Positions 38,281-39,862 of a DNA stretch of 47,700 nucleotides are shown here, piece after piece (the first letter of the stretch is position 1; each line of letters starts with the position of its first letter). A model generated the notes under the pieces. The model had not been told where the DNA came from, searched no databases, and worked only from the letters and a program-made list of their open reading frames with translations. The stretch is from Candidatus Pacearchaeota archaeon (GTDB lineage: Archaea > Nanobdellota > Nanobdellia > Pacearchaeales > GW2011-AR1), in contig VGKP01000005.1 of the NCBI GenBank assembly GCA_016866975.1, positions 1 through 47,700 on the forward strand, read 5' to 3'. A program made the position numbers and the translations under genes.

Positions 38281-38760
38281 TTCTACTGTCAGATAAAGCG
38301 CGCCACTATTGGGTGGGAGAAAAACTTCCGATATATTAACACATCTGGAAATTTTGGTTAAGCATGATTAAACGCCGAATGGCGTAAGGTTTCCGTTATC
38401 GCTTAACCGAAGCAAGCAATTAAGATTGAAGGTTTTTCTTGCAGGAAAAAAAAGCCGTAGGCTAAATTAAGCATTTCTTTTAATCGTTCAGGTTGGGCGA
38501 GGTTTTTGGCTAAAATATCCTTGCTTAGAATAACCAAAAACTTAGGTTAAATCTCGGTTCGAACGAAGAGAACATTTCAGGATGAAATGAGAGATTTACC
38601 GCCCAATGGAGATTAAGCGTCACGTATGTGCCCGAGGTGCGAATTCAGAGCCTCGGGGGTTGTAATTTGTTCGTTAATCTGCTCCGTAACGTGGTTGCTT
38701 TTTCACTTGCTCAAACTATTCGTTTTCGTGGGGGTCGGCTCTGCTGTTTTTGATGTATCT
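38281..38760. repeat. About 480-bp non-coding, hairpin-rich region of modular palindromic elements
   Basis: No ORF of 60 aa or more. Contains the ACGCCGAATGGCGT hairpin (38372-38385), CATTTCA/TGAAATG (38573-38589), CCCGAGG/CCTCGGG (38631-38657) and an inverted copy of the 39583-39738 element. Confidence 0.7.
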
Positions 38761-38814
38761 ATAGAGTAGTTAAATATGAATACCTTTAAATACCTATATT
38801 TTTGATGAACCTAT

Positions 38815-39507
38815 ATGGATAAAGATAGAATTCGTGAAAGTAATGAAAGAATAGGTAGATTAAAGCTTAGTGGAGCTCATATTTTGAGTGGAAAAAAAGG
38901 AAGAGAAGCCTATTCTAAACTTAAACCAAAACTATTAGAAAATACTCCTCTAAATTTGCACCATATATTTGATAGACCTATCTATGTCAGCGAGAGCATT
39001 ATGGGTGTTGGAACTACTGCATATAAAGATGGAATCGAAATAGTAGTTATTAATGAAAATTCCGCAAGATTACGTTATGTTAATCCTCCTTGCCCGTTAG
39101 TTAAATGCAAAATTCCAAACAGGCAAGACACTTTTGATAATACTGTGGCACACGAGTTTGGACACATTATTTACCATGAATTATTAAATCCAGAAATCGC
39201 CAAAAAATATGCTGGACACTATGATTGGTTTGGGGACAATACGTTTGTAGAAGCATTTGCATTCTTTTTCGGGGATAGAATTTCAGGTTATATAAATAAT
39301 GTAAGAATAATGTTTCCAGGTTATACTGAAGGAGATTGCCCGCCATGCCATAGAACACACTTAAGACAAATGTATTTTCACCTTCATAGACAGACAAAAT
39401 CTAAATCGATAAAAGATATAGTGATGGGCTTAGAAGATATTTTTGGGCAATTCATGGAAGAAAATAACAGAAAATTCTGGGAAAAGTATAATTCAAACAA
39501 ATCTTGA
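38815..39507 (+). CDS. Putative zinc metallopeptidase (HExxH plus downstream Glu)
   Basis: TVAHEFGHIIYH and FVEAFA; TATA at 38785. Confidence 0.75.
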   Translation: MDKDRIRESNERIGRLKLSGAHILSGKKGREAYSKLKPKLLENTPLNLHHIFDRPIYVSESIMGVGTTAYKDGIEIVVINENSARLRYVNPPCPLVKCKIPNRQDTFDNTVAHEFGHIIYHELLNPEIAKKYAGHYDWFGDNTFVEAFAFFFGDRISGYINNVRIMFPGYTEGDCPPCHRTHLRQMYFHLHRQTKSKSIKDIVMGLEDIFGQFMEENNRKFWEKYNSNKS

Positions 39508-39542
39508 CTATTTAGAAGTTAGAAATCTTTATTCATAATTCT

Positions 39543-39862
39543 CTTTGCATGAGCAAAGACTCTCTGTCGCTTTAGCGACCCCGAGCCGCCCCCCCGTTTT
39601 ATTTTTGAGCACATTTATTCTTAGAAAAAGCAATTACGTTTAAACAAGATTAGACGCCGAATGGCGTGGTGTTCGTGGAGTAGGTTTAAACGTAGCGGAG
39701 GAGCAGATTAGAATTATTTTCAGAATGAAAATAACCCCTATTGTTTTGCATGTGTTACGGGGGCAAATTAACAACTGCGTTTAATCACCCTTAAGCGCAC
39801 CTTTACCAATTTCAAAGGCCCTAAAAACAAGTGATGCCGTGCGCGTCGCGCCTGCGGCGCTC
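39543..39862. repeat. About 320-bp non-coding, hairpin-rich region of modular palindromic elements
   Basis: Hairpins CTTTGC/GCAAAG, GTCGC/GCGAC, TACGTTTAAAC/GTTTAAACGTA enclosing ACGCCGAATGGCGT, ATTTTCA/TGAAAAT and GCGCC-TGC-GGCGC. Confidence 0.7.

Follow-up and report, generated by a model that had tools for sequence, protein, structure and literature searches.

A strand-specifically folding hairpin repeat that punctuates a cassette-like hypervariable island in DPANN archaea

The sequence analysed here (the window) is a stretch of 47,700 nucleotides from a Candidatus Pacearchaeota archaeon (assembly GCA_016866975.1, contig VGKP01000005.1, positions 1 to 47,700 of the forward strand). The source genome (G000) comprises 806 kb in 31 contigs, is 89% complete, has 37% G+C, and carries an archaeal gene set with a family B polymerase, FEN1, aIF2-gamma, Cdc48, and TrmB-type regulators. 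On the + strand of the window, the gene for the family B DNA polymerase (PolB, 32713..35040) is followed, after an AT-rich interval of 6.2 kb, by the gene for an RsmB/F-type rRNA methyltransferase (RsmB, 41205..42215); both were assigned with Pfam. The interval holds seven genes, two copies of a hairpin (38348..38422 and 39630..39705, both on the + strand), and a degenerate third relative. The two copies bracket an open reading frame (ORF; 38815..39507, + strand) for a 230-aa protein with an HExxH zinc-peptidase motif, here HEFGH. This cassette protein has no Pfam or NCBIfam family and no relative in any fetched hairpin array. Further upstream lies a TrmBL2-like winged-helix gene (36110..36847, + strand; Pfam TrmB 1.9e-13, with a full-length profile match to TrmBL2 structures), a representative of the commonest neighbour of the repeat. 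The hairpin is a new, protein-sized recognition element that folds strand-specifically and punctuates a cassette-like hypervariable island.

An earlier reading of the sequence alone had pointed out two structured elements with an identical inner hairpin inside different, perfectly pairing outer stems. Inspection of the sequence places both at the coordinates given there, on the + strand. The inner 14-mer, ACGCC-GAAT-GGCGT, is the same in both copies (38372-38385 and 39654-39667), and these are its only two sites in the window and in the 806-kb genome. Together the copies form a 36-nt direct repeat with 83% identity, 1282 nt apart. The outer stems do pair, but they are longer than had been stated, at 12-13 bp with G.U pairs; each window copy reaches 12 bp once the U.G pairs are counted. 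In copy 1, the 5' arm (38352-38363, with the core GGTTAAGC at 38356-38363) is followed by the GATTA bulge ATGATTAA (38364-38371), the inner hairpin, a T-rich 3' loop of 15 nt (38386-38400), and the 3' arm (38401-38412). Copy 2 has the same order, with the 5' arm at 39634-39645, the GATTA bulge AAGATTAG at 39646-39653, a 3' loop of 16 nt at 39668-39683, and the 3' arm at 39684-39695. Both copies match the covariance model described below (82.9 bits, E 1e-15, and 81.8 bits, respectively). With RNA parameters the + strand folds at -22.0 kcal/mol in copy 1 and -19.6 kcal/mol in copy 2 (z -3.6 and -2.4 against shuffles), and the - strand is weaker at -17.1 and -15.7 kcal/mol. DNA parameters rank the strands in the same way, with -11.3 and -11.2 for the + strand versus -10.0 and -10.1 for the - strand.

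These two hairpins are members of one hairpin repeat family, which numbers at least 145 distinct copies after duplicate removal. Its hosts are Woesearchaeota/Pacearchaeota-type DPANN genomes and groundwater and lake metagenomes; the records that carry the element are labelled as Woesearchaeota, Pacearchaeota, or Nanoarchaeota metagenome-assembled genomes (MAGs). Most of the copies come from the Hainich aquifer wells H41, H43, and H51 and from lake samples. In a BLAST comparison of the two intergenic regions with 40 relatives, the hairpin and its neighbouring non-coding modules were multi-copy, often with several per contig. A covariance model built from 17 copies found the hairpin in 12 of the 17 genomes of the genus, with 1-6 copies each, and did not detect it in the other five. 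It was also present in three of the 59 other genera of the family that were sampled, one of them with 7 copies. A pattern scan returned 27 further true sites in species-representative genomes, and more than 100 hairpin-bearing contigs were found in metagenomes. Many copies lie at contig ends, and the repeats evidently break the assemblies of metagenome bins. A viral origin was rejected after a scan of the viral contigs in IMG/VR, which contained no real copy: the strict pattern had 0 matches, and all 62 matches to a loose pattern failed the model.

One record with the element carries a bacterial label. The first 1200 bases of MGPL01000001.1 (L091, 'Deltaproteobacteria bacterium GWA2_55_10') contain a TrmBL2-like gene and then a complete hairpin copy; the G+C content is 28-37% over the first ~1.1 kb and then jumps to 55-60%. 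Either this scaffold end is chimeric or the sequence was inserted across domains.

Across the family, a 12-13 bp outer stem centred on TTAA encloses an unpaired GATTA bulge, an inner hairpin that is GC-rich and variable, and a 3' loop rich in T. The 5' arm has the consensus (C)AATTYCGKTTAARC and leads through a variable step of two nucleotides to the invariant GATTA, after which comes R. Between copies the inner hairpin differs in its sequence and its loop, and its stem is kept; variants include ACGCC-GAAT-GGCGT, ACGC-GAA-GCGT, ACGC-TCT-GCGT, and GGCGCTG-AA-CAGCGC. The 3' loop, of 15-16 nt, starts with GTTT(T)(T), and the 3' arm has the consensus GYTTAAMCGRAA. The 5' arm and bulge together read CGTTTAA-6 nt-TTAAACG, an inverted-repeat core of the form 7+6+7. 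On inspection, this core extends to ATTTCGTTTAA - GCAAGA - TTAAACGCCGA, imperfect inverted arms of 11 bp around a 6-bp spacer in which the inner seven of the 11 positions are symmetric. A rarer type B has the same arms around a different interior hairpin, TTGTGCGA..TTCGCAC, and always lies 3-30 nt past the stop codon of an ORF of 95-123 aa that belongs to no known family (L044:6436-6508, L048:1365-1437, L083:855-927, L089:2021-2091, and L099:1897-1969).

Selection on secondary structure, which the sequence-only reading had proposed from two copies, is supported by 46 distinct genomic copies and by an independent set of 87 distinct metagenomic copies. The homologs keep the pairing of the outer stem: 92% of stem cells are paired in the genomic set, with seven pairs changed on both sides, and 91.5% in the metagenomic set, with eight covarying pairs and 116 compensated cells. 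Shuffles pair at 85-87%, and none of 500 reached the observed pairing or covariation score. As a slid control, partners were moved by one to three columns; pairing dropped to 27-46% in the genomic set and to 24-46% across sets. A 3' arm pairs better with the 5' arm of its own copy than with the arm of another copy (-15.1 vs -12.4 kcal/mol). Of the stem pairs, ~13% are of the G.U type, which is in the majority at two positions.

The element could instead be a control region in double-stranded DNA. The TTAA-centred boxes, with five TTAAACG half-sites per unit, might be operators or TATA-like boxes of divergent promoters bound by TrmBL2-like proteins, the hairpin being a mere consequence of inverted binding sites. 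TrmBL2-like genes do end 90-125 nt upstream of co-oriented copies at 20 or more loci, the arms resemble the CTTAAAAC box that precedes RsmB start codons by 25-35 nt in the genus, and genes leave the spacer both ways. We nevertheless consider such a control region very unlikely. It predicts equal numbers of G.T and A.C departures, whereas the outer stem has G.T/T.G and A.C/C.A in a ratio of 71:4 in the genomic set, which includes the model's own seeds, and of 137:12 in the metagenomic set; both alignments were fitted to the model, which favours pairing and not one mismatch type over the other. In addition, the variable stem positions hold Watson-Crick or wobble combinations only, and the inner hairpin keeps its pairing while its sequence changes. 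Since a duplex palindrome does not predict the asymmetry, the motif strand folds as single-stranded RNA or DNA. A mutational strand bias would need to be more than tenfold to explain it. The folding energies have the same polarity: over the family, the + strand folds as RNA at -20.4 kcal/mol versus -14.2 kcal/mol for the - strand, 6.2 kcal/mol better, and it is the lower of the two in 92% of copies.

The sequence-only reading had proposed a new ncRNA (non-coding RNA) motif or a protein-recognised hairpin of single-stranded DNA. The hairpin is no ncRNA gene of a single locus; it is a multi-copy, co-oriented repeat between cassettes, and one module of a modular spacer of ~250-300 nt. At least four types of upstream module (U1-U4) occur, G-rich or with a small covarying hairpin and a C-rich run; whatever the type, an A-rich and then a T-rich box stand at a fixed distance upstream of the hairpin. 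The downstream modules (D1-D9) contain variable hairpins. In the window, copy 1 is preceded by U1 (38297..38349, + strand; GCGCGCCACTATTGGGTGGGAG..AACTTCCGATAT.., G-rich and then A/T-rich), which was delimited by BLAST: blocks from relatives start repeatedly at 38297 (query position 67-68), and U1 also precedes 17 other copies. Copy 1 is followed by D3 (38413..38492, + strand), a module common to G011, G005, and other copies, which ends in CTTTTAATC (38477-38485), the GATTAAA box in inverted form, and then GTTCAGG. Upstream of copy 2, module typing identified U4 (39558..39629, + strand), with a GTCGC-TTTA-GCGAC hairpin, a C-rich run, and a T-rich run; U4 blocks occur at 82% identity in G013 and G009. 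The module downstream of copy 2 is D4 (39706..39797, + strand; inverted repeat I7). When the left end was aligned with the reverse-complemented right end, the end of D4 was an inverted copy of the left end (GCGTTTAATC, 39777-39786, and ACCCTTAAGCG, 39787-39797).

In most elements, the left end of about 30 nt has such an inverted copy 80-160 nt downstream, with CGTYTAATC followed by a TAAACG-type box. A long-range helix between GATTARACG and the downstream CGTYTAATC appears in some minimum-energy folds. It was rejected, as the distal repeat does not covary with the left end (own -16.4 vs cross -15.9 kcal/mol, median rank 0.54) and the downstream module has no strand-biased folding; the distal repeat is therefore treated as a conserved inverted sequence and not as a helix. 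The D2 module, with 4 distinct copies, has too few for a covariation test. A regex survey of the GACTATCTGT-hairpin module for wobble bias gave noise, the pattern being too loose, and led to no conclusion.

The degenerate third relative in the window (36929..37012, + strand) was recognised by a box search and from its sequence, 82 nt after the stop codon of the TrmBL2-like gene. It consists of CAATTTGCCGTTTAC, TTGT, GATTAGGCG, a hairpin CCCTTG..CAAGGG, and GTAAAC. Because the covariance model missed it, its membership rests on inspection.

The copies form arrays. Among adjacent copies on the same contig, 48 of 49 are co-oriented, and their spacing is 0.7-4.2 kb with a median of 1.7 kb. The 182 ORFs between and around the copies fall into 136 clusters. 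They encode DUF4258/PBECR-DUF2283 and ParE toxin-antitoxin genes, AsnC and TrmB regulators, methyltransferases, an NYN-domain protein, DUF1761, an aldehyde dehydrogenase, and an FtsX permease. Small ORFs clustered behind the hairpin had been considered as fragments of an IS630 transposase; they turned out to be the DUF4258/PBECR-DUF2283 toxin-antitoxin pairs. The gap between hairpin and ORF is ~100 nt on the upstream side and 200-400 nt on the downstream side. At 20 or more loci the gene that ends 90-125 nt upstream of a co-oriented hairpin is a TrmBL2-like paralogue.

These paralogues are 25-37% identical to one another. The window has two (36110-36847 and 3705-4460), and others precede hairpins in L044, L051, L061, L070, L115, L176, and elsewhere. 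They may be island-borne chromatin or silencing proteins, or readers of the TTAAACG half-sites.

PolB and RsmB are the conserved left and right borders of the island. The synteny of PolB with arrays recurs on 8 other contigs, and in many contigs arrays lie 3' of PolB and/or 5' of RsmB, always on the sense strand of both genes. The interval between the two genes is hypervariable: G008 has 1.3 kb with a single small gene and a single hairpin, against the 6.2 kb of the window, and other contigs have 2-4 hairpins in it. In at least 12 contigs the last hairpin is co-oriented with RsmB and 210-470 nt upstream of it. The position is not universal, as RsmB has other neighbours and no core site in several genomes. 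A box, AAC..CCTTAAAACC, occurs 25-35 nt before the RsmB start codons and is conserved in nearly all genomes of the genus (L227-L241); it resembles the hairpin arms and is probably the TFB-recognition element (BRE) and TATA box of a leaderless transcript.

The fixed strand relative to PolB and RsmB, together with the wobble pairs and the strand bias of the fold, would also suit a structural RNA that is transcribed in the PolB-to-RsmB direction and works as a terminator, insulator, processing site, or stabiliser. In such an RNA, the GC hairpin and T run would be terminator-like, and the GAUUA bulge would bind a protein. GTTTT(T)(T) does follow the inner GC hairpin after 2-4 nt in most copies, 28 of the 44 upstream genes are co-oriented and end ~100 nt before the hairpin, and the A-rich/T-rich box keeps its upstream distance regardless of module type. 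On the other hand, antisense genes account for 16 of 44 upstream neighbours and 18 of 43 downstream ones. Judging from known archaeal termination signals, the internal T run would stop archaeal RNA polymerase before it reached the 3' arm, and transcription predicted from the best TATA-like box would begin within or beyond the 5' arm, so that the RNA would lack the covarying stem. The absence of strand-biased folding in the downstream module also speaks against an RNA, as do the low copy number in its own genome (2-3 copies) and the absence of copies from many related genomes. The comparison with Rfam that had been proposed gave no family match at gathering or permissive thresholds: for the whole window the gathering thresholds returned only two tRNAs, and at E up to 10 the region 37800-40200 had nothing except a chance match of 18 bits to a snoRNA. 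We regard a structural RNA as a serious alternative, if on balance a rather unlikely one.

The spacers carry signs of exchange. Module types U1-U4 and D1-D9 assort freely around the hairpin; U1 is found with D1, D2, D3, and D5, and U2 with D1, D6, D7, and D9. A few hairpins are hybrids, with the 5' arm of one subtype and the 3' arm of another. The ends of long homology blocks between contigs cluster at module edges and never fall inside the hairpin. Contigs L092 and L225 have flanks that are 93% and 99.5% identical, and one of them has an extra cassette of 1.16 kb with a second hairpin. Their homology breaks off at the GATTA box, to begin again at the inverted copy of that box. Neither a target-site duplication nor a clean empty site was seen. 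A perfect palindrome of 16 bp, TTCGGCTTAAGCCGAA, is present in the window at 36864-36879, 16 nt after the stop codon of the TrmB-like gene. It was considered as an empty site, with the arms joined and no interior, and rejected because it is unique in all the sequence examined.

The element could also be a selfish, non-autonomous repeat. The unit would then be a mobile element of ~130-200 bp with terminal inverted repeats of ~30 bp (CTTGACAATTTCGTTTAAGC-AA-GATTAAACG and its reverse complement), like a REPIN (a hairpin-forming doublet of repetitive extragenic palindromic, or REP, sequences) or a MITE (miniature inverted-repeat transposable element). Its hairpin would be kept for a transposase that acts on folded single-stranded DNA, and copies would build up between genes as a side effect. 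REPINs have been described as hairpins of just this make-up, with two inverted boxes of 13 nt and compensatory changes. The inverted copy of the left end 80-160 nt on, the multi-copy and patchy distribution, the frequent position at contig ends, as is usual for repeats, and the Y1 transposases in some of these genomes can all be counted for a selfish element. We nonetheless judge it unlikely. The 48 of 49 co-oriented copies are unlike MITEs or bacterial interspersed mosaic elements (BIMEs), the modules assort independently and not as one moving unit, and neither the missing target-site duplication and clean empty site nor the lack of covariation between distal repeat and left end fits a transposing unit. 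The Y1 genes are not found in two genomes with 5-6 copies, and those present elsewhere are not flanked by the repeat and have other end hairpins.

The search for an enzyme covered tyrosine recombinases and transposases. Genes for Y1 (IS200-type) transposases occur in three of the five hairpin-rich genomes and were not found in two genomes with 5-6 hairpin copies; no hairpin lies near a Y1 gene, even with filters off. The IS200-type tnpA genes (L172:2114-2545, L112:808-1233, L100:2403-2834, and L101:3255-3686) include two that are passengers in hairpin arrays. They have conserved end hairpins of their own, CCC..GGTCTTGCC..GGG, with AGCTTCAC after the right end. A partnership of the repeat with an IS200 or REP-associated tyrosine transposase (RAYT) was rejected, as these tnpA genes lack the flanking motif and their end hairpins are unrelated. 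The motif thus matches neither an Rfam family nor the ends of the IS200-type elements in these organisms. Our survey of the literature on palindromic cassette repeats in DPANN archaea found no description of this element, and the family is hitherto undescribed.

The tyrosine recombinases number 1-3 per genome and lie away from the arrays. IntI and attI were not found in the 15 incomplete MAGs searched, whose tyrosine recombinases are XerA-class or of other kinds. Two that are XerA-class occur in G000 (C7:17134-17604 and C22:9129-9602); they score 254 and 234 bits against the NCBIfam XerA cut-off of 220 and are 39% identical, and neither is near a hairpin. The correlation between a second XerA paralogue and the hairpin is suggestive only. 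A chromosomal dif upstream of RsmB was rejected as a general rule: in G004, G007, G010, G012, and several hairpin-bearing genomes RsmB has other neighbours and lacks a core site, and no bare core was found upstream of it in hairpin-free genomes.

The hairpins are probably markers of the places at which gene cassettes are exchanged. We favour an attC-like site of recombination or junction that acts as a single strand, a tentative reading to which we give a little less than an even chance: the copies are uniformly oriented and separate cassettes, their flanks assort independently, their core is dif-like, and they keep no fixed relation to gene direction. The hairpin would then be the core module of the modular spacer that separates cassettes in a hypervariable accessory island. 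One strand, here the + strand, would fold whenever it is single-stranded into the 12-13 bp TTAA-centred stem with its asymmetric internal loop and GC-rich inner hairpin. A protein would read the stem and the invariant unpaired GATTA, and cassettes would be gained, lost, and reshuffled at the hairpin, following the logic of integron attC sites with a different architecture. Because CGTTTAA-6 nt-TTAAACG has the layout of a tyrosine-recombinase core, one of the two XerA-type recombinases of the host is the best available candidate for the enzyme. The data establish the family, its fold and strand specificity, the co-oriented arrays, the diversity of the cassettes, and the mosaic flanks; we infer that the folded strand is DNA, that the recombination is site-specific and not homologous, and which enzyme would act.

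Several observations weigh against such a recombination site. The wobble share of ~13% is met more typically in RNA hairpins than in those of DNA. Sites of the attC type are far shorter than the spacers, and the order of the GTTRRRY-like and RYYYAAC-like boxes is the opposite of that in attC. The cassette genes face either way (28 co-oriented vs 16 antisense upstream, 25 vs 18 downstream). No integrase, recombinase, or transposase was found beside the arrays, and the second XerA paralogue, present in five of 11 hairpin-bearing versus none of four hairpin-free genomes, is not significantly associated with the hairpin in these incomplete MAGs. The breakpoints fall at several module edges and not at one crossover point, so homologous recombination between repeats could explain the mosaicism. 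In the comparison of L092 and L225, the interior of the single-copy allele is a third variant, which makes the difference an allelic replacement and not a clean excision product.

A more specific form of the recombination reading joins these elements into an integron-like cassette system without an integron integrase. A duplicated XerA of the host would recombine a new kind of folded single-strand site, with TTAA stem, GATTA bulge, and dif-like core of the form 7+6+7, and co-oriented arrays of promoter-bearing cassettes would build up next to PolB or RsmB. We hold this full combination to be improbable.

Other repeated sequences occur in the same interval of the window. A 47-bp repeat lies just past two minus-strand stop codons (35161-35207 and 37032-37078) and seems to be a further spacer module of the same island. 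A G-rich/C-rich module flanks the HExxH gene in inverted copies, as GGGGGTCGGCTC upstream (38722-38740) and GAGCCGCCCCCCC downstream (39580-39596), and other spacers contain this module one way round or the other. A GC-rich palindromic element (..GCGCGTCGCGCCTGCGGCGCTCCA.., 39833-39868) recurs in several genomes, among them G000 (C4:10532-10561), G016 (three copies on C27), and G008 (C2, upstream of RsmB). In the window it overlaps the proposed GTG start of a 449-aa ORF, and the gene therefore probably starts further downstream.

DPANN archaea are host-dependent organisms with tiny, gene-dense genomes, and little is understood of the ways in which they gain and trade accessory genes. The hairpin is a compact, recognisable marker of a hypervariable cassette island in a lineage that is widespread in freshwater and groundwater, and its 145 natural variants define the constrained positions. 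If it serves recombination, the integron problem would have been solved a second time and independently, and Xer-type enzymes would have a new candidate substrate. As an RNA, it would add a new, clearly covarying motif to the structured RNAs of archaea. Either way, the covariance model lets such islands be found and delimited in fragmented metagenome bins.

Among known systems, REP, BIME, and REPIN sequences are likewise short, multi-copy intergenic palindromes with compensatory changes that form modular mosaics with other motifs. In contrast to REP/RAYT systems, the hairpin repeat flanks no RAYT-like gene, has a uniform and not an alternating orientation, is low in copy number (1-7 per genome), and is confined to the variable island. 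A REP/RAYT system was rejected because no Y1 gene is flanked by the repeat. The ends of IS200/IS605 elements are also strand-specific DNA hairpins that are recognised as single strands. The IS200-type elements here, however, have unrelated end hairpins and are only occasional passengers in the arrays; an IS200/IS605 end was rejected, as the tnpA genes of L100, L101, L112, and L172 carry their own. The hairpin unit has terminal inverted repeats in common with MITEs. No transposase shares the hairpin ends, and the one indel polymorphism is not a simple insertion.

A folded attC site is expected to begin, 5', with RYYYAAC (R'') and to finish, 3', with GTTRRRY (R'). The hairpin reads GTT(A/T)AAGC ... 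GCTTAA(A/C)C on either strand, so that the GTTRRRY-like box comes first and the RYYYAAC-like box last, and the GTT/AAC ends are at the open end of the stem and not next to the loop. It also differs in its invariant GATTA bulge and GC-rich inner hairpin inside a spacer of 250-300 nt, and in cassette genes that face both ways; IntI and attI, as noted, were not found. A canonical attC was rejected on account of the swapped box order, the long spacers, and the failure to find IntI. Integrase-less attC clusters (CALINs) have been reported in Archaea (Ghaly et al. 2022, PMC9668308). Like these, the arrays consist of co-oriented imperfect hairpins that bound diverse cassettes, often with ORFan or toxin-antitoxin genes, and often have no adjacent integrase. 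In both, it is one strand that folds, into a stem with unpaired bases whose ends are conserved and whose centre varies. The variant arms GTTAAGC and GCTTAAC even fit GTTRRRY and RYYYAAC literally.

The layout of archaeal dif is given in PMC2958812. The hairpin core is like it in its imperfect inverted arms of 11 bp, its 6-bp spacer, and TAA-N6-TTA, a likeness of layout only. A dif-type site is expected once per chromosome, at the terminus, and in all relatives; the hairpin is present in 1-7 copies per genome, and it is absent from several genomes of the genus. Xer-dependent modules, in which dif-like sites flank integrated elements, include integrative mobile elements exploiting Xer (IMEX) and the pdif modules of Acinetobacter. 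Like them, the arrays have no dedicated integrase and carry toxin-antitoxin and accessory genes, and the host encodes XerA-type enzymes; pdif sites alternate in orientation, whereas the hairpin copies are co-oriented. An Xer site that is formed by folding of one strand is found in attP of the CTX phage. By analogy, the hairpin resembles the attC clusters in its logic and the Xer-dependent modules in the layout of its core.

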